From contig DIYS01000015.1 in the NCBI GenBank assembly GCA_002429115.1, positions 1 to 32,000 of the forward strand: a DNA stretch of 32,000 nucleotides. The letters are read 5' to 3'. Positions 3,755 to 29,018 of this stretch are shown piece after piece (positions within the stretch are counted from its first letter, which is position 1; the number at the start of each line of letters is the position of its first letter). Source of the stretch: Saccharicrinis sp. UBA6048. Its GTDB lineage: Bacteria > Bacteroidota > Bacteroidia > Bacteroidales > Marinilabiliaceae. The notes under the pieces were generated by a model that worked only from the letters and a program-made list of their open reading frames with translations, did not search any database and had not been told where the DNA came from. Both the position numbers and the translations under genes were made by a program.

Positions 3755-5083
3755 ATGAAATATTCCATCCTAATTTTATTGCTGGTTGTAAGCATAAGTA
3801 TGCGATCGCAGGAGCCTATTTTAAGCATGATGAAGATGGTTCCCCAAGTGCAGCGGATAAATCCGGCCCTCTACAATGATAGTTTGAATTACATTAGTCT
3901 TCCGGGAATCAGTAATTTCAATTTTGAGCTTGAAGCACAAGGTCTCAAACTCAACGATGTAAGCAATAGTTTGTATGATAATGATGATGCCGCAGCCATT
4001 TGGGATGATTTAGCGGAATCGCTTAGTAGTAATAATTCAATCGCCTTTAATGCCAAAACAACCATTTTAGGCTTAGGAATTAAAATTAAAAATGGGTTTT
4101 TCTCGTTTGAAGCTATCCACAGAACATCTGGTCAGATTCAGTTCTCCAATTCCTTTGCCGACTTACGGTATATCCAGTCTGATTTTGTTATTCCTTCCGG
4201 AGAAATTAATAGTCAACCAGAACTAGAAATCGATGCATTAAGCTACAACGAATACAAGTTTGGCTACGCACACCAAATAACTCCTAAACTAAGAGTTGGC
4301 GCTTCTTTTAAATTCTTAAGTGGCATCAGCTATGTTGATTCAGAAGACATGGGTATTGACATTCAATACAATGAAGAGACAGGAGGTCTTATACAGACCA
4401 AAGGTCAGTTGGCCATCTCTGGTCCTTTTGATTATAGTCATAATAATAACCATAGTGTCAATGACATTTCATTCAAAAACAATCTATCGGTTAATGACCT
4501 GCTCATAACCAACAATACAGGATTAGCGTTTGATTTTGGCGCTAATTACGACATCACTGATAAACTAAACATCAATGTGGCCATCACTGAAATCGGATCT
4601 ATCAAATGGAAATCGTATAACTTATACGAATCGAACCAGACGTTTGTATTGGATCAAAACACAGTACTACAAGGAACTAATATGGGAAGTTTTATGGCCG
4701 ACTCATTGAGTAAAGCCCTTGAACTTAAAGTTGAAAACACAAGTAAAAAACAAAAACTAAACACGACACTAAATACCAATATTAACTACCAATTACTAAA
4801 ATGGTTAAAACTTGGGGTTAATTACTCGTCTACATCTGTATACGATGATCGTCATAATCAGATGACGTTTATGGCTGATTTTTCTAGAAAAGAATTTTCA
4901 GCTTTCATCATCGGTTACAGCATATCCAACATTAATGGTAATTCGCTCAACCTGGGTACTTCGGCCAGGCTATTAAAAGTGATTCAATTCTATGCCTTTG
5001 CCGATAAGATGGAAAATATGTTTAAAGATAGTTCCGAAGTCTCATCATTAAGTATCAGGGGCGGAATTAATGTCGTCTTTTAG
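3755..5083 (+). CDS. Putative outer-membrane beta-barrel protein (resembles the Bacteroidota DUF5723-type family; function unknown)
   Basis: Signal peptide MKYSILILLLVVSISMRSQ. The sequence is rich in alternating, Asn/Ser/Gly-rich beta-strand-like segments, and the C-terminus ...GGINVVF ends in an aromatic residue as in OMPs. The family name is recalled from memory and not verified. Confidence 0.6.
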   Translation: MKYSILILLLVVSISMRSQEPILSMMKMVPQVQRINPALYNDSLNYISLPGISNFNFELEAQGLKLNDVSNSLYDNDDAAAIWDDLAESLSSNNSIAFNAKTTILGLGIKIKNGFFSFEAIHRTSGQIQFSNSFADLRYIQSDFVIPSGEINSQPELEIDALSYNEYKFGYAHQITPKLRVGASFKFLSGISYVDSEDMGIDIQYNEETGGLIQTKGQLAISGPFDYSHNNNHSVNDISFKNNLSVNDLLITNNTGLAFDFGANYDITDKLNINVAITEIGSIKWKSYNLYESNQTFVLDQNTVLQGTNMGSFMADSLSKALELKVENTSKKQKLNTTLNTNINYQLLKWLKLGVNYSSTSVYDDRHNQMTFMADFSRKEFSAFIIGYSISNINGNSLNLGTSARLLKVIQFYAFADKMENMFKDSSEVSSLSIRGGINVVF

Positions 5084-5168
5084 AATATCAGACATACTCA
5101 ACATTCAGTCTGAGTTCGATATTATGTTTCGAATCAGGTTATTAAATAAACAAATAATACTACCAGCC

Positions 5169-5984
5169 CTATTTTTTAACCAAACCTATAACCCTAACTA
5201 ATAACTCTTTGAAATTAGAAGCATCTTCATAAAATGGAACATGACCACAGTGAGGTATTACATGCACCTCACCTCCCAAAAGCGGAATATCAATATTAGT
5301 CACCTCATCAAGATTGTAAAGAAGTTCTTTGCCGCCATAAATCATAGCAGTAGGAACCGAATTTTGATTAATCAGCTCAAACTGATCCGTATAGCTTTGA
5401 TCTTCTATTTCTTTAGCCAGGTATTCACGTGTTAAAGGATCAGATTTTATTAGTTGCTGTTTGAAATAATCATCTGGTGGAAAATCCGGTGCATACATGG
5501 CCGCATTCATCTTATCAATATCTGAAGCTGTGATATCAGGCTTGAAAAACAAAGGGAAAACCGGACTTGGTAAAAACACAGACATATTCAAGGGTTTCGA
5601 AGCAGGATATGAACAGGTTAAAACAATGCCTTTAATTTCAATCTCACATTTCAATAATTCAATGGCAATGTTACCTCCTAAGCTATGTCCAACAACTATA
5701 ACATCAGTAATTTCATTCTTTTTACAAAAGACAGCTAATTTTTTTGCTTGCTCAGATATTACATAGTCCTTTTCCGGATCGTTTGAAAAGTCAGAATCAC
5801 CATAACCTATCAGATCAGGCGCATACATCGTAAACTCTCTTTGTAATTGTGAATCATTTAATTGTTTTAAGAAGGAGTCAGAATCTAACGAGTTTCCGTG
5901 CAAAAAGAGCAAATTAGTATTTCCTTCTCCTGCTTTATAACAGGCCATTGATAAGCCATTTACTTCAACCTTGTGCTTTTCCAT
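5169..5984 (-). CDS. Alpha/beta-fold hydrolase
   Basis: LLFLHGNS oxyanion-region motif, nucleophile elbow VVGHSLGGNIA (G-x-S-x-G), and a C-terminal HCGHVPFYE catalytic-His region. Confidence 0.8.
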   Translation of the reverse strand: MEKHKVEVNGLSMACYKAGEGNTNLLFLHGNSLDSDSFLKQLNDSQLQREFTMYAPDLIGYGDSDFSNDPEKDYVISEQAKKLAVFCKKNEITDVIVVGHSLGGNIAIELLKCEIEIKGIVLTCSYPASKPLNMSVFLPSPVFPLFFKPDITASDIDKMNAAMYAPDFPPDDYFKQQLIKSDPLTREYLAKEIEDQSYTDQFELINQNSVPTAMIYGGKELLYNLDEVTNIDIPLLGGEVHVIPHCGHVPFYEDASNFKELLVRVIGLVKK

Positions 5985-7568: not shown

Positions 7569-7662
7569 TTGAGAATCTTTTTTGGCAAAGGTGAGAAATC
7601 AGGCTCTAATACCAAAATTACATTGAAGTTAGCGTTATTATTTTGGTATAATTATGAAATAG

Positions 7663-7711
7663 AAAGGATCGTATCTTTATTTGTGGGCTGCAAATAAAGA
7701 TACGATCCTTT
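7663..7711 (-). repeat. Perfect palindromic hairpin (20-bp stem, 9-nt loop), copy 1 of a repeat family; probable lacZ 3' stem-loop
   Basis: AAAGGATCGTATCTTTATTT (7663-7682) pairs perfectly with AAATAAAGATACGATCCTTT (7692-7711). Nineteen nt of the right arm recur at 14958-14976. It lies 26 bp downstream of the lacZ stop. Confidence 0.8.
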
Positions 7712-7737
7712 GATTCTTAGTCTATAAAAACAAGTGA

Positions 7738-10950
<3,213 letters not shown>

Positions 10951-19552: not shown

Positions 19553-19610
19553 CAGGCAGAAGGCAGAAGGCAGAAGGCTATTCTCATCGGTCTTCCGTCA
19601 TCTGTCTTCT
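19553..19610. repeat. CAGAAGG x3 tandem heptamer plus its imperfect inverted complement (GTCTTCC GTCATCT GTCTTCT) in the nqrA-nqrB spacer
   Basis: Three perfect CAGAAGG copies at 19557-19577. Arm 19558-19578 can pair with 19590-19610 across an 11-nt loop. Confidence 0.8.
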
Positions 19611-22432: not shown

Positions 22433-22714
22433 TTATTTTAAGCTACAAAATCTTTAATGAAATCCCCCTCCCCATTCCTTCGTCGTGGTACTTTCCTTTA
22501 TTCCCAAGTGTAGAAGCATTTACAGCCAGGAAACAAAATGTTTGACATCGCTCTTACTTAACGACCTGTGACTATTGACCATTCAATAATCAACGTTAAA
22601 TAACTGACCGTTTTCGTCACCAAAATCAAACCATTCACCTACAATAACACGTCATTCGTCAAGCAAATTAAAATTAATACTAAAAAAAGTGTTACGCTTT
22701 GCACCTTACTGCAA

Positions 22715-22769
22715 TTAACTATATAAACACCAAACTTTATTTTAAGCAAAAGCCGGTGTATATAGTTAA
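22715..22769. promoter_or_regulatory. Inverted repeat TTAACTATATAAACACC ... GGTGTATATAGTTAA immediately upstream of the 428-aa ORF; the right arm is an iteron-like copy
   Basis: 15 paired positions with a 2-nt bulge and a 23-nt spacer. The right arm plus flank (22750-22771, AAGCCGGTGTATATAGTTAAAC) resembles array unit AAGCCGTGACTATTTAGTTAAAG. It ends 18 bp before the ATG at 22788. Confidence 0.6.
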
Positions 22770-22787
22770 ACTTTTAATCCTTACTTA

Positions 22788-24074
22788 ATGGCTAAATCCA
22801 AACCCCGCAAAAAGCGCCCTGTCACGACTCCATTCAACAAAATGGAGGCCATCAAACCATTTATTATCCGACTACATGAGCTGTGTAAGGCAATCAATTG
22901 TGATGTTATGCAATACATCGTCAGCAAAGAAGACATGCTTGCACTGGCCGGCTTACGATTCAGAATTGGTTCGATTGATAAGGTTACTAACGAATATAAA
23001 CACACCAGACCTTATAAGTCGATATTTAATAAGATTATTAAACAGGCGCTTAAAACCCATCTTTCGGTAATTAAAGACTTTCCTATTCAAACCTGCTTTT
23101 TAGATGTTACCTACTTTGATGCCCTTACTATATTTCTTGAAAATAATCTACTTGAAAATAAATCCTTGTCCGACAAATTTCTCGATCAAATCAAAGCGTA
23201 TTATGACAGTTCTAACAAAAAGTTTTACAGTATTCTGCAACACCAGCTAATACAAATCACATTGTTAGAAAACCTGCCTGATGAAGCTATGCTTTCGTTT
23301 GGCTATACGCCTGCCCCCATTCATACACACAAACTTTACAATGCCGAATTAAGCTTTCAACTGTACCTACAACGACCAATTAAAGAATACATCACTTTTA
23401 AAGGGCAAACAAGACTGGCCTACAAGGTTATCATTCCAATATTTACCAATAAACTGTATCATGAGACGGTCATCAACACAAAACTAACAGATGGTTTATA
23501 TCAAGGTGATAAAGAATCGTTACACATATTTATACAGGCACATGCCTTACAACGATTCAGAGAACGAACAGCACCTTTTAATGACATGTTCATCAAATTG
23601 CAGTTTTCGCTTTGCATGCTTAATGAAATAAAACCAATATGCAGAAGCGAGAGTTTGTATATACCATACAGGATCAACGATATTACCATTGGCTATTTCG
23701 TTGGCATTATTGCTGAAGAAAAAGTAATGATTAAGACTTTTATACTCGCCACACATGCTTCAGCCCCTGAAGGACATAAATTCCAAGAGCTGACCGGATT
23801 TAAAAAGCATGACATGAGCTATTGGGATATTACCAAACTCGACACGTTTATATACAATGATATGAAACCCGAAAACCCTTTGTATGCCTACTTTGAAGAG
23901 AGTGGTTTATTACCAATGTTTGATCTGGATGACAAACAGATTATGCCCGAAGATAAATGTGATAAACAAGCTAACTGGCAAAACATGCTTGAGTGCATTA
24001 ACAAGCAGCATACACATAAAAACCTGAGTCAGCAAGATTTCCAAAACACTATACTGGAGGAAGTGATGAGCTGA
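22788..24074 (+). CDS. Hypothetical protein (428 aa), no family recognised; basic N-terminal tail
   Basis: Long uninterrupted ORF. The N-terminus is MAKSKPRKKRPVTTP. An internal block IQAHALQRFRERT...IPYRINDITIGYFVGIIAEEKVMIKTFIL loosely recalls the HAxxRxxER-type small phage/TA-associated domain (DUF4258-like). No Walker, HTH or integrase motifs seen. Confidence 0.7.
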   Translation: MAKSKPRKKRPVTTPFNKMEAIKPFIIRLHELCKAINCDVMQYIVSKEDMLALAGLRFRIGSIDKVTNEYKHTRPYKSIFNKIIKQALKTHLSVIKDFPIQTCFLDVTYFDALTIFLENNLLENKSLSDKFLDQIKAYYDSSNKKFYSILQHQLIQITLLENLPDEAMLSFGYTPAPIHTHKLYNAELSFQLYLQRPIKEYITFKGQTRLAYKVIIPIFTNKLYHETVINTKLTDGLYQGDKESLHIFIQAHALQRFRERTAPFNDMFIKLQFSLCMLNEIKPICRSESLYIPYRINDITIGYFVGIIAEEKVMIKTFILATHASAPEGHKFQELTGFKKHDMSYWDITKLDTFIYNDMKPENPLYAYFEESGLLPMFDLDDKQIMPEDKCDKQANWQNMLECINKQHTHKNLSQQDFQNTILEEVMS

Positions 24075-24091
24075 AAACACCAACTTTTTAC

Positions 24092-24325
24092 TGAAACAAG
24101 CCGTGACTATTTAGTTAAAGCTTGTCGCAATTGTGAAACACGGCGTAACTAAATAGTTATTCTAAGAATCAGCAGTGAAATGTGCCGTAACTAAATAGTT
24201 AAACCACATTTCGAGACCAAAACATACCATAACTAAATAGTTAAAGCTCAAATGAAGAGTAAAACAAGCCGTGACTATTTAGTCACGATGAAAAAATAAA
24301 AAAGCGTCGTAACTAAATACTTAAG
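24092..24325 (+). repeat. Iteron/centromere-like array: five 42-bp direct repeats plus a sixth copy, each with a TAACT-N4-AGTTA-type palindrome
   Basis: Palindrome centres fall at 24110.5, 24152.5, 24194.5, 24236.5, 24278.5 (exactly 42 bp apart) and 24316.5 (38 bp). The conserved roughly 28-bp core is TGAAACAnGCCGTRACTAWWTAGTTAAA, with roughly 14-bp variable linkers. Confidence 0.9.
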
Positions 24326-24379
24326 GCAACTAATCTCAACGATCTTATAATTTTTAACCTCTTAAAATGAACCTTTATA

Positions 24380-25114
24380 ATGAAAATACCTAAAATTTTA
24401 TCCACTACACGAGTGAGTGAAGTGAATGGTGTTACACAACAAATGATTGATGAGTATGGCAAAGGCGATTATAGTGCCGATAGCCATCTTACCAAGGTAT
24501 TTGACCACATAACGGATAGCAACAATCAGTTGGGCATAGCCATAATGCGCGATTCTGTAGAATCGGAATTAGCTGAGTTGGATGAGATTACCGATAACGA
24601 AGTAACCCTCACACATGGTTTGACTAAAGGCTACACCTGCCATCCTGATGAAAACACGGCTAACCGTGCCGGCGAACTGTTTAAAATGGTCGATAAATAT
24701 GGACTGGAAGTAAAAAAGAAAAGCTACCGCGAGGAATATCCCTTGCTTGGCTCTATGATTACTGAAAGTAAAACTGAACCATATGTGGCTTGCATTGCTG
24801 CATTGCCGGGTTGCGATGAACGATTTAAACGACTGGAAGCTGCCGTTAATAACTTTAACGCCAAGCAAAATGTCTACCTGTCGGTAAAAGACGACCAGAA
24901 TGAATTGTCATCAGCCACAGCTATTAAAAAGCAACTCATTGCTTTTATTAACGGCGAACTGGTGGCTTACCTGGATGTGATGCAAAGAGTAAATACCGAG
25001 ATGTATGGCGGGTTAGCCCAGTTTACTGCCAACCGAATTGCCGAAAACAATTCGGCTGTGCGCAAACGCAGAAACAAAACTGAAGCAGAAACAGAAGTAA
25101 AAGTAGAAGAATAA
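24380..25114 (+). CDS. Hypothetical protein (244 aa); resembles a Bacteroidota-restricted helical family (DUF6261-like), function unknown
   Basis: Predicted all-helical and acidic. Blocks ...SADSHLTKVF...ESELAELDEITDNEV...GYTCHPDENTANRAGELFKMVDKYGLEV...ACIAALPGCDERFKRLEAAVNNF...NNSAVRKRRNK match my memory of that family. Not verified. A strong terminator follows. Confidence 0.65.
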   Translation: MKIPKILSTTRVSEVNGVTQQMIDEYGKGDYSADSHLTKVFDHITDSNNQLGIAIMRDSVESELAELDEITDNEVTLTHGLTKGYTCHPDENTANRAGELFKMVDKYGLEVKKKSYREEYPLLGSMITESKTEPYVACIAALPGCDERFKRLEAAVNNFNAKQNVYLSVKDDQNELSSATAIKKQLIAFINGELVAYLDVMQRVNTEMYGGLAQFTANRIAENNSAVRKRRNKTEAETEVKVEE

Positions 25115-25138
25115 CTTTAGATCGAGATTAGTTGCATG

Positions 25139-25168
25139 ATCCCTGCTGGTAACAGCGGGGATTTTTTT
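25139..25168 (+). terminator. Rho-independent terminator after the 244-aa ORF
   Basis: ATCCCTGCT-GGTAAC-AGCGGGGAT stem (one G-U pair) followed by TTTTTTT (25162-25168). Confidence 0.8.
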
Positions 25169-28591: not shown

Positions 28592-28685
28592 ATGTTGATG
28601 AGAGTTTTGTGTTTAAGGTTCTGGGTTGAGAGTTTTGAGTTCCGGGTTGAGAGTTTGGGGTTTTGGGTTTGAAGTTTTGATTTAT
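28592..28685 (+). repeat. GT-rich degenerate tandem repeat, about 21-bp unit x3-4 (GGGTTGAGAGTTTTGAGTTCC / GGGTTGAGAGTTTGGGGTTTT / GGGTTTGAAGTTTTGATTTAT)
   Basis: Units start at 28623, 28644 and 28665, with a more diverged copy upstream (GTTGATGAGAGTTTTGTGTTT). The region is almost C-free. It lies between the FtsB-like stop and the next ATG (28695). Confidence 0.75.
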
Positions 28686-28694
28686 AAAGTACAA

Positions 28695-29018
28695 ATGAAT
28701 TTATACAAGTTTTTAAGTGCCATCTACTATGTAGGAATGGCCTTTGTTTTTTTAGGTGTTTTAATGCACATCAGTGATATTAACTATGGCGCATGGGTAT
28801 TTACTTCGGGTGCTGTAGTTATGGTTGGTATCAGATGCTATAACTGGATTGTAGGAAAACCAGAAAACAAACGGGTCTTTTCTATTTTACTATACAGTTC
28901 GTTAATGTTGCTGCCAGCTGCCTGGACCATGTTGACATATCGTCGCTATTGGGTCATATTTATTATTCTGACAGCTGTACTGGACACCTATGCCAGCTAT
29001 CGACGCATCAAAAAATAG
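28695..29018 (+). CDS. Small integral membrane protein (about 107 aa, 3-4 TM helices), unknown function
   Basis: The track ORF 28626..29018 starts inside the GT-rich repeat. The in-frame ATG at 28695 (MNLYKFLSAIYYVGMAFVFLGVLM...) is the more plausible start. Hydrophobic segments run throughout. Confidence 0.6.
   Translation: MNLYKFLSAIYYVGMAFVFLGVLMHISDINYGAWVFTSGAVVMVGIRCYNWIVGKPENKRVFSILLYSSLMLLPAAWTMLTYRRYWVIFIILTAVLDTYASYRRIKK

Follow-up and report, generated by a model that had tools for sequence, protein, structure and literature searches.

A conserved array of six helically phased palindromic sites upstream of a DUF6261 gene in Carboxylicivirga-like Bacteroidales: a candidate multi-operator region

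Introduction

Phased operators of oligomeric regulators are known from the six Lrp sites at pap and ilvIH, from the ARG boxes of ArgR, and from OR/OL of lambda. Repeat arrays are also found beside the genes of the proteins that use them, as for ParR and parC of R1, omega of pSM19035, and KfrA of RK2. The sopC site of the F plasmid consists of 12 direct repeats of 43 base pairs (bp), each with a 16-bp inverted repeat that is bound by SopB (PMC3177203). Here we analyze an array of six palindromic units in a 32,000-nucleotide stretch of DNA from Saccharicrinis sp. UBA6048 (contig DIYS01000015.1, positions 1 to 32,000; hereafter the window), where it lies between the gene for a 428-amino-acid (aa) protein and the gene for a 244-aa protein of the DUF6261 family. 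The geometry of this array is closest to that of F sopC, but the defining partners and the replicon context of sopC are absent.

Transcription control in Bacteroidota beyond gut Bacteroides is poorly mapped, and both of the protein families that flank the array are uncharacterized. Spacing in the array is maintained across species with base-pair precision, whereas its recognition sequence has been swapped between paralogs, and the locus is in that respect an unusually clean natural experiment.

Architecture of the array

The 305-bp gap between the 428-aa open reading frame (ORF; 22788-24074) and the 244-aa ORF (24380-25114) holds six repeat units. A repeat search places these units, each approximately 27 nucleotides (nt) long, at 24091-24117, 24133-24159, 24175-24201, 24217-24243, 24259-24285, and 24297-24323, with start-to-start spacings of 42, 42, 42, 42, and 38 bp. 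The whole array (24091-24325, assigned to neither strand) can be described as six ~42-bp units, each composed of an A-tract box (AAAACA-GCC), a 14-bp dyad, and a drifting linker. The dyad, TRACTA-WW-TAGTYA, is the symmetric core of each unit, with six paired positions on either side of a central AA or TT, and the six dyads together span 24104-24323. Also without a strand, they are dyad 1 (24104-24117, TGACTATTTAGTTA, center 24110.5), dyads 2, 3, and 4 (24146-24159, 24188-24201, and 24230-24243, each TAACTAAATAGTTA, with centers at 24152.5, 24194.5, and 24236.5), dyad 5 (24272-24285, TGACTATTTAGTCA, extended to CGTGACT-ATTT-AGTCACG, center 24278.5), and the promoter-proximal dyad 6 (24310-24323, TAACTAAATACTTA, center 24316.5), which lies 38 bp past dyad 5 and 63.5 bp before the ATG of the DUF6261 gene. 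An earlier reading made from the sequence alone (hereafter the sequence-only reading) had described six sites with four 42-bp steps and one of 38 bp, and our centers match it exactly. We also recover the two unit subtypes that it distinguished, with ATTT at the center of units 1 and 5 and AAAT in units 2, 3, 4, and 6, together with the perfect CGTGACT-ATTT-AGTCACG palindrome of unit 5.

When the 16-mer CGTRACTAWWTAGTYA is searched for with at most 2 mismatches, it gives 12 strand-hits against 0.31 expected (0/100 shuffles), all of them at the six sites. The 14-mer TRACTAWWTAGTYA, allowed at most 1 mismatch, has 6 matches in the window against 0.09 expected. A mismatch-tolerant motif search returned no dyad in the rest of the 32-kb window, and zero copies outside arrays were found when the 19 related loci that we fetched (~120 kb of related sequence) were included. 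A scan of genome contigs returned only three loci that were already known, and a metagenome scan added two fragments of one locus. The generic dispersal typical of repetitive extragenic palindromic (REP) elements, which the sequence-only reading had set against its own proposal, is not seen in these ~120 kb. With units that are no more than 74-85% alike, the array escapes Tandem Repeats Finder.

An information profile built on 36 units from six loci places the dyad at offsets -7 to +7 and reveals two further conserved blocks to its left. The three positions of AAA at -17..-15 from the dyad center are kept in 100%, 92%, and 86% of the units, and GCC is conserved at -11..-9, while hardly any information resides in the other ~12-14 bp of the unit. 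In 44 of 49 units AA or TT occupies the center of the dyad, and no unit has a self-complementary dinucleotide there.

Two additional sequences near arrays were noted. Just 5' of the start codon of the 428-aa gene, AAGCCGGTGTATATAGTTAAAC (22750-22771) resembles a degenerate seventh unit in which the right half-site is intact, and in the Carboxylicivirga taeanensis locus (L012) TAACCGCATAGTTA at 5639-5652 is located 77 bp upstream of unit 1.

Conservation of the helical phase

Synteny of the locus extends to strain M1479 (L003), an uncultured Carboxylicivirga (L004), and a metagenome-assembled genome (L005), all of which have the order NQR operon, type 9 secretion system (T9SS) plug, variable genes, one to three tandem paralogs of 425-432 aa, array, DUF6261, variable genes, and aldehyde dehydrogenase. 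Dyad centers in the related loci, some of which were read directly from the sequence, are spaced 42, 42, 42, 42, and 38 bp in L003, and four 42-bp steps followed by one of 38 bp are likewise found in L012, L015/L016, and L002. L005 has four 42-bp steps and then two of 38 bp; L004 has 42, 42, 42, and 41 bp, with a degenerate sixth unit placed by register ~38 bp on; and L014 has steps of ~40-42 bp and then ~38 bp. The 38-bp last interval of the window is also present in L003, L005, L012, L015, and L002, and the G/C subtype of dyad 5 with its ATTT center is kept at the same position in L003, L004, and L012.

A MAFFT alignment of eight upstream regions, from the window and seven other loci, keeps the six units aligned in phase, and most rows contain 0-2 gap characters. 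Among the six loci with type-A or type-A' dyads (defined below), the cores are 77% identical on pairwise comparison, compared with 60% for the left box and 45% for the linkers. The sequence-only reading had suggested asking whether orthologous loci retain the 42-bp phase even as their linkers drift, and this is what we find: the integral-turn spacing is kept exactly in the window, L003, L012, L015, and L002 (42 x 4 + 38) and nearly so in L004, L005, and L014. The distance from the last dyad to the DUF6261 ATG, in turn, ranges from 53.5 to 72.5 bp over all loci, and this dyad lies just upstream of a -7-like box. As this distance is variable, insertions and deletions (indels) do occur in this DNA and are excluded between the sites.

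Association with the DUF6261 gene

The gene with which the array travels is the downstream one (24380-25114, plus strand), whose 244-aa product matches Pfam PF19775 with E = 8e-10. Its homologs in Carboxylicivirga are 52-73% identical, and close homologs of both flanking proteins are almost confined to this genus. Two DUF6261 loci that have no 428-aa homolog within 6 kb (by tblastn), L012 and L014, still carry the array. In L012 the DUF6261 gene sits in a wholly different neighborhood, with pyrBI, msrA, and a gene for an SMC-like ATPase, and a six-unit type-A array ends 72.5 bp before its ATG. L014 is a second DUF6261 paralog of strain M1479, 62% identical to the protein of the window, with six phased dyads in front of it. 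The module of array and DUF6261 gene occurs at three different chromosomal places. Because it is kept in L012 and L014, where the 428-aa gene is absent, the array is a property of the downstream DUF6261 gene and not of the upstream 428-aa gene. The sequence-only reading had placed it between two unknown genes; the position in the gap stands, but the array is attached to DUF6261 and is not shared by both.

An AlphaFold2 (AF2) model of the DUF6261 protein is all-helical with a predicted local distance difference test (pLDDT) score of 89.6, and the protein is acidic, with an isoelectric point (pI) of 5.1. The model has no significant Foldseek match in PDB or BFVD, where it returns generic helical bundles only. 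A ribbon-helix-helix (RHH) N-terminus, which we considered for this protein, is unsupported by Pfam or PDB profile searches, and the literature on DUF6261/PF19775 offers nothing beyond one incidental mention. As a separate observation, the C. taeanensis module in L012 has upstream of it a 1.5-kb gene-free stretch containing a 259-nt direct repeat (4643-4901 and 5137-5395), the two copies of which are 97% identical and 494 bp apart.

Diversification of the dyads in a fixed frame

While the frame of the array is kept, the dyad itself is not: paralogs and lineages of DUF6261 differ in it, with GATACC-N3-4-GGTATC as one example. Type A, TRACTAWWTAGTYA, is found in the window, L003, L004, L005, and L012, and a related type A', with TTACTAAATAGTAA, TCATTAAATGATAA, and similar sequences, in L015/L016. 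Type B reads ATACCAWWTGGTAT in L002 and CGATAYC-N3-4-GRTATCG in L014, the two sharing the core ATACC-N3-4-GGTAT, and L001 has a weaker TTTTC-CAAT-GAAAA-like set that we call type C. Types A and B coexist in strain M1479, each before its own DUF6261 paralog. The partial DUF6261 protein of L002 agrees with the L014 paralog at 85% over 27 N-terminal residues, compared with 72% for the protein of the window.

The symmetry of the dyad is maintained through these changes. Over the eight aligned arrays, the complementarity of the six paired positions is 88.9%, compared with 76.1% in shuffled controls and 23-51% when the partner is slid, and 20 of the 36 pairs have changed on both sides; none of 500 shuffles reaches the observed values. 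At L014 5725-5943 and L002 3087-3306, single type-B units carry symmetric variants (ATACC/GGTAT, ATACA/TGTAT, and ATATC/GATAT) around a center of 3-4 nt, which indicates that complementarity is kept unit by unit.

Elements near the putative promoter

Three conserved elements accompany the dyads on the promoter side of the array, all read on the plus strand. The first is an A-tract, GAAAAAATAAAAAAG, between dyads 5 and 6 (24290-24304; alignment A5, columns ~237-251). It is 15 bp long, the only A-rich tract of the array, and the sole strongly conserved linker, common to type-A and type-B arrays. The second is a box, CAACTAATCTCAAC, at 24327-24340, between dyad 6 and the putative core promoter (alignment A5 and direct reading). 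The third, at 24348-24359 and read from the same sources, comprises a -7-like Bacteroidota box, TAATTTTT (24348-24355), and then the conserved TTTTTAACC, and would be the core promoter of the DUF6261 gene. Arrays of types A and B share the A-tract as GAAAAAAATAAAAAAG between units 5 and 6, the CAACTAATCTCAAC box after unit 6, and TTTTTAACC before the ATG. No -33 TTTG was found for the putative DUF6261 promoter, and scans for sigma-70-type and Bacteroidota promoters were uninformative. The DUF6261 transcription unit ends at an intrinsic terminator at 25138-25163 on the plus strand, which has an 11-bp stem with 6 G-C pairs and a T-run. Candidate roles for the A-tract and for the box that follows dyad 6 are a bend, a site for a second factor, or a promoter element.

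A phased operator model

We interpret the array, with moderate confidence, as a phased multi-operator region, or nucleoprotein operator, of the DUF6261 gene. It contains several copies of one dyad motif that are significantly enriched and local to the array, and their spacing by integral helical turns is kept, exactly or nearly so, in related loci. Among the options left by the sequence-only reading, the nucleoprotein operator fits best; the centromere-like and origin-like options are not supported, given the chromosomal synteny, the absence of Rep and Par genes, and the lack of plasmid relatives. Its proposal of a cooperative multi-site platform on one helical face is supported by the conserved phase; protein binding and cooperativity are themselves inferred.

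In the mechanism that we propose, a sequence-specific protein that is symmetric and probably a dimer would bind each of the six 14-bp dyads as duplex DNA. The first five centers are 42 bp apart, which corresponds to four turns of B-DNA (42/10.5 = 4.0), and the dimers would be expected to line up on one helix face. Aligned in this way, they could contact each other or share an oligomeric core, resulting in cooperative, all-or-none occupancy. The sixth site, 38 bp further on, would abut the core promoter ~40-45 bp upstream of the likely transcription start, where a bound complex may either touch RNA polymerase and recruit it or occlude the promoter and exclude the polymerase, and in this manner set DUF6261 transcription.

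Several observations weigh against this interpretation. A consensus scan between the array and the ATG did not find a strict Bacteroidota promoter, and a terminator scan found no plus-strand terminator between the 428-aa gene and the array, so that the array is probably transcribed too. Pfam, profile, and Foldseek searches assigned no known DNA-binding fold or family to DUF6261 or to the 428-aa protein, and only 13 mostly conservative columns separate the DUF6261 proteins of type-A loci from those of type-B loci. A distant DUF6261 locus, L010, is without a comparable array, and the feature may therefore be confined to the Carboxylicivirga clade. Finally, the symmetric variants of the type-B units, together with a 1-bp change in half-site spacing, fit base pairing or template switching better than they fit a rigid dimer. 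Symmetric variants can also arise by template-switch mutation in quasi-palindromes, and are hence not decisive.

As for the protein that would occupy the sites, DUF6261 itself, acting in autoregulation, is the leading but unproven candidate, with a chance that we place somewhat short of even. It is considered because the array accompanies this gene from place to place and diversifies along with it, and because no other gene is a constant neighbor; rapid, paralog-specific change of cis sites usually goes with a binder that is encoded in cis. An unlinked, paralog-specific regulator is just as likely. The 428-aa protein is a weaker and rather improbable candidate, because it is dispensable for maintenance of the array and its residues do not track the array type. 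If DUF6261 is the binder, the domain family gains a function and a new DNA-binding architecture; otherwise, the array marks a dedicated regulator. In either case, the array provides a defined DNA bait for the binder and a direct test of helical-phase dependence, and types A and B of M1479 are matched specificity variants with which a recognition code could be mapped.

Alternative explanations

A more far-reaching proposal joins the array and DUF6261 in a self-contained cis/trans module, in which DUF6261 would recognize the dyads and assemble a higher-order filament or wrapped complex over the six sites, four turns apart, while its specificity co-diversifies with them (types A, A', B, and C). 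We consider this unlikely. If true, DUF6261 would represent a new Bacteroidota family of proteins that bind DNA sequence-specifically or form nucleoprotein complexes, and the module a chromosomal analogue of the pairs of plasmid centromere and centromere-binding protein, with the 428-aa family as a frequent partner.

The main rival to the operator model is recognition at the level of RNA or hairpins, to which we give a low probability. Here the units would be transcribed as tandem hairpins, in the intercistronic region or 5'-leader of a 428-aa/DUF6261 transcript or on the minus strand, and would serve as a platform for an RNA-binding protein, as an mRNA stabilizer, or as weak minus-strand terminators (UUGUUUU follows each dyad). 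This proposal would readily account for dyad symmetry that is kept through sequence change, including the compensatory variants within type-B arrays with loops of 3-4 nt, and it draws on the missing plus-strand terminator between the 428-aa gene and the array. Additionally, unit 5 was picked out by the terminator scan as resembling a minus-strand terminator, the AAA that is invariant at -17..-15 would be a U-tract on that strand, and at position 9 the A-C class, which corresponds to minus-strand G-U, outnumbers G-U by 16 to 4. The paired positions 2-7, however, are strand-neutral, with 15 plus-strand G-T (G-U in RNA) mismatches and 16 A-C mismatches. Hairpin energies are also equal on both strands, with means of -3.9 kcal/mol for plus and -4.1 kcal/mol for minus (Wilcoxon p = 0.63), and many units fold at or near 0 kcal/mol; a mean of approximately -4 kcal/mol compares poorly with the nearby genuine terminator and its 11-bp, 6-GC stem. 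The five type-A genomes conserve the sequence of the arms while the linkers are randomized (45%), which points to base-specific reading and not to pairing alone. Furthermore, an indel-free spacing of 42 nt makes sense for a DNA helix but not in any obvious way for RNA, no gene on the minus strand runs into the array, and no Rfam family matches it. Tandem terminators on the minus strand were rejected on hairpin stability and the missing strand bias, and the evidence as a whole favors recognition of double-stranded DNA over RNA or hairpins.

It is also conceivable, though we find it quite improbable, that the array is the target or landing pad of the 428-aa protein, which would be either the product of a selfish or mobile ORF that inserts upstream or a regulator. 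The 428-aa gene (22788-24074, plus strand) is an optional upstream neighbor of the array and belongs to a large unannotated Bacteroidota family with 1038 clusters at 50% identity (E <= 1e-3) and members of ~410-430 aa. The proposal has its basis in the arrangement of the locus. In L001 and in six of the eight loci with aligned arrays, one to three tandem copies of the 428-aa gene precede the array, with 17-30 bp between the end of the gene and unit 1. A conserved non-coding element of ~106 bp lies upstream of the gene in the window (22621-22726, plus strand), and its homolog in L012 (5530-5635) lies directly upstream of the array; the local alignment of the two scores 66, compared with 20.4 +/- 2.6 and a maximum of 29 in shuffles, and the homology is also seen in MAFFT alignment A6. 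As the element and the array are contiguous in L012, the 428-aa ORF, which lies precisely between them in the window, appears to be an optional component that was inserted into the sequence upstream of DUF6261 or has been lost from it. With a pI of 8.4 the protein is basic, and its association with DUF6261 is old, as L010 has a distant 428-aa relative beside its DUF6261 gene with ~22% global identity (31% in local tblastn).

Against a landing pad, arrays are intact at loci where the 428-aa gene is absent, and a protein search returned no relative from C. taeanensis. The array type does not track 428-aa residues, with no convincing specificity-determining correlation, and in L017 and L019 members of the family stand alone without an array. 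Thus the two families are linked in L010, yet the array does not come with the 428-aa family as such. Searches assigned the protein to no DNA-binding or nuclease family: it has no match in Pfam, NCBIfam, PHROG, or PADLOC, and its AF2 model (pLDDT 76.7) has no significant Foldseek match in PDB or BFVD, with only a weak RelE/YoeB-like resemblance at residues ~244-320.

A few observations concern the 428-aa family itself. Its members often occur as two or three tandem paralogs that are ~40% identical to each other, and were located at L003 10001-13936, L002 393-3058, L006 4716-7266, L017 5001-6281, and L019 3403-4650. Residues Q250, H252, R260, G302, Y303, and P327 are invariant. The upstream element at 22621-22726 contains a sigma-70-like TTGCAC-N17-TATAAA, and in L001 (40-312) and L005 (609-881) the 428-aa gene follows a 90-aa ORF whose product has a hydrophobic C-terminus. 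The two copies of this ORF are 53% identical, and the window has none.

That the array is a sopC-type, centromere-like partition site, possibly the relic of an integrated element, is in our view very unlikely. The proposal has in its favor the geometric resemblance to F sopC and the presence of the module at three chromosomal places. The window, however, is ordinary chromosomal DNA from a Carboxylicivirga-like bacterium in the Marinilabiliaceae (Bacteroidales), with the Na+-NQR operon and a T9SS plug protein upstream of the locus; aldehyde dehydrogenase, DivIC, OmpH, and PorP/SprF downstream; and glycosidases and LuxR-type regulators farther off. The housekeeping neighbors (NQR operon, T9SS genes, and aldehyde dehydrogenase) are chromosomal and stand in conserved synteny. 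Pfam annotation of the larger ORFs identified no Rep, Par, integrase, or transposase gene in the window, in agreement with the chromosome-like context without Rep, ParA, ParB, or integrase that the sequence-only reading had described, and no ParA, ParB, ParM, ParR, or TubZ-type gene was found in the window or in any related locus. No relatives of either flanking protein were found on plasmids, phages, or viral contigs. Moreover, the array always lies a short distance before the DUF6261 ATG, like a promoter element. A small plasmid was rejected as well, since the 3.3-4.2-kb contigs that carry several homologs are ordinary metagenome fragments of the same chromosomal locus.

Two other repeats were seen in the window. 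A perfect heptamer tandem repeat, AGGCAGA x 3.6, occupies 19554-19578 in the short gap between the NQR2_RnfD_RnfE and NqrA ORFs. At 28604-28680, G/T-rich repeats with periods of 7, 14, and 21 nt (GTTCTGGGTTGAGAGTTTTGA x 3) are found where a 130-aa ORF (28626-29018) begins, an unannotated frame without a match in Pfam.

An iteron-type replication origin with a neighboring protein as initiator is extremely improbable. Tandem repeats beside an uncharacterized gene, the short A/T-rich tract at 24290-24304, and lineage-specific repeats such as those of Rep/iteron pairs would agree with it, and the sequence-only reading had drawn the iteron parallel. That parallel fails on geometry, as the array has dyads every 42 bp in place of 17-22-bp direct repeats every two turns. 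Searches of Pfam, NCBIfam, and PHROG matched neither flanking protein to a Rep family, nor any of 66 family members, and no DnaA boxes were detected apart from a single 8-of-9 match inside the DUF6261 ORF. The context is again chromosomal and syntenic, without plasmid or phage relatives, and arrays persist beside a 244-aa acidic helical protein alone.

We give equally little credence to a dispersed palindrome cluster of the REP or bacterial interspersed mosaic element (BIME) kind that has no locus-specific function. The units are indeed short imperfect palindromes in an intergenic cluster, and a genuine pair of REP elements and a REP-associated tyrosine transposase (RAYT) in L006 (Labilibaculum antarcticum AP018042) shows that such elements exist in this order. 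The motif, however, is absent from the rest of the 32-kb window and of the fetched loci; copy number, order, the unit-5 subtype, and phase are conserved at orthologous positions in genomes with 60-73% protein identity; and there is no RAYT gene near the array. The L006 pair itself consists of an ORF for a RAYT-like HUH transposase (7675-8316, motif NHFHALI) and of REP palindromes, GAGACGCGATGCATCGCGTCTC, at 7584-8076, which are located upstream of and inside the transposase ORF; those inside code for two copies of TDAMHRVST. We also rejected the idea that palindrome arrays generally accompany the 428-aa family, since the L006 palindromes are REP elements and L017 and L019 are arrayless.

Clustered regularly interspaced short palindromic repeats (CRISPR) arrays have near-identical repeats of 23-47 bp, unique spacers of ~26-72 bp, and cas genes or a leader, and we reject this assignment for an array whose repeats are 74-85% alike, whose ~12-14-bp linkers are orthologously conserved, and which has no cas genes.

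Comparison with known systems

Like the iteron origins of F (ori2), R6K (gamma), pPS10, and RK2 (oriV), the array consists of regular tandem repeats beside a gene, with a lineage-specific sequence. Iterons, however, are 17-22-bp direct repeats ~22 bp apart that are associated with a winged-helix Rep protein, DnaA boxes, and an A/T-rich unwinding element, none of which is present at the array. With REP and BIME elements it shares short imperfect palindromes clustered in an intergenic region. REPs are dispersed and RAYT-associated, whereas the motif described here is confined, in the sequence examined, to DUF6261 upstream regions, where its order and phase are conserved.

The pairs of ParR with parC, omega with its repeats, and KfrA with its repeats are similar in that a cis array immediately precedes the gene of a small or helical protein, with which it is co-inherited and co-diversifies, and autoregulation is plausible for DUF6261 on this analogy. 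These proteins have RHH or helix-turn-helix (HTH) domains and act on direct or heptad repeats of 7-11 bp, whereas DUF6261 is without such a domain and the array has 42-bp dyad units.

The resemblance to sopC lies in tandem repeats of approximately four turns (42 bp compared with 43 bp), an inverted repeat in each (14 bp here and 16 bp there), and placement on one helix face. On its plasmid, sopC follows sopAB, and an HTH protein of the ParB family binds it, whereas this array is chromosomal, has six units, is accompanied by no Par genes, and directly precedes the putative promoter and the ATG of DUF6261. It also differs from sopC in its conserved 38-bp last interval and in its paralog-specific dyads.

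The operators of Lrp, ArgR, and lambda share with the array several A/T-rich dyads that lie upstream of one promoter or overlap it, integral-turn spacing that would let dimers bind cooperatively on one face, and a proximal site at the core promoter, which in the array is a putative one. Their spacing is typically two to three turns, compared with four turns in the array, and the sites of the array diversify between paralogous target genes in one genome, as is unusual for a global regulator. A phased operator array is a known kind of element, from which this one differs in the four-turn period, the fixed 38-bp last step, and the swapping of dyads between paralogs.

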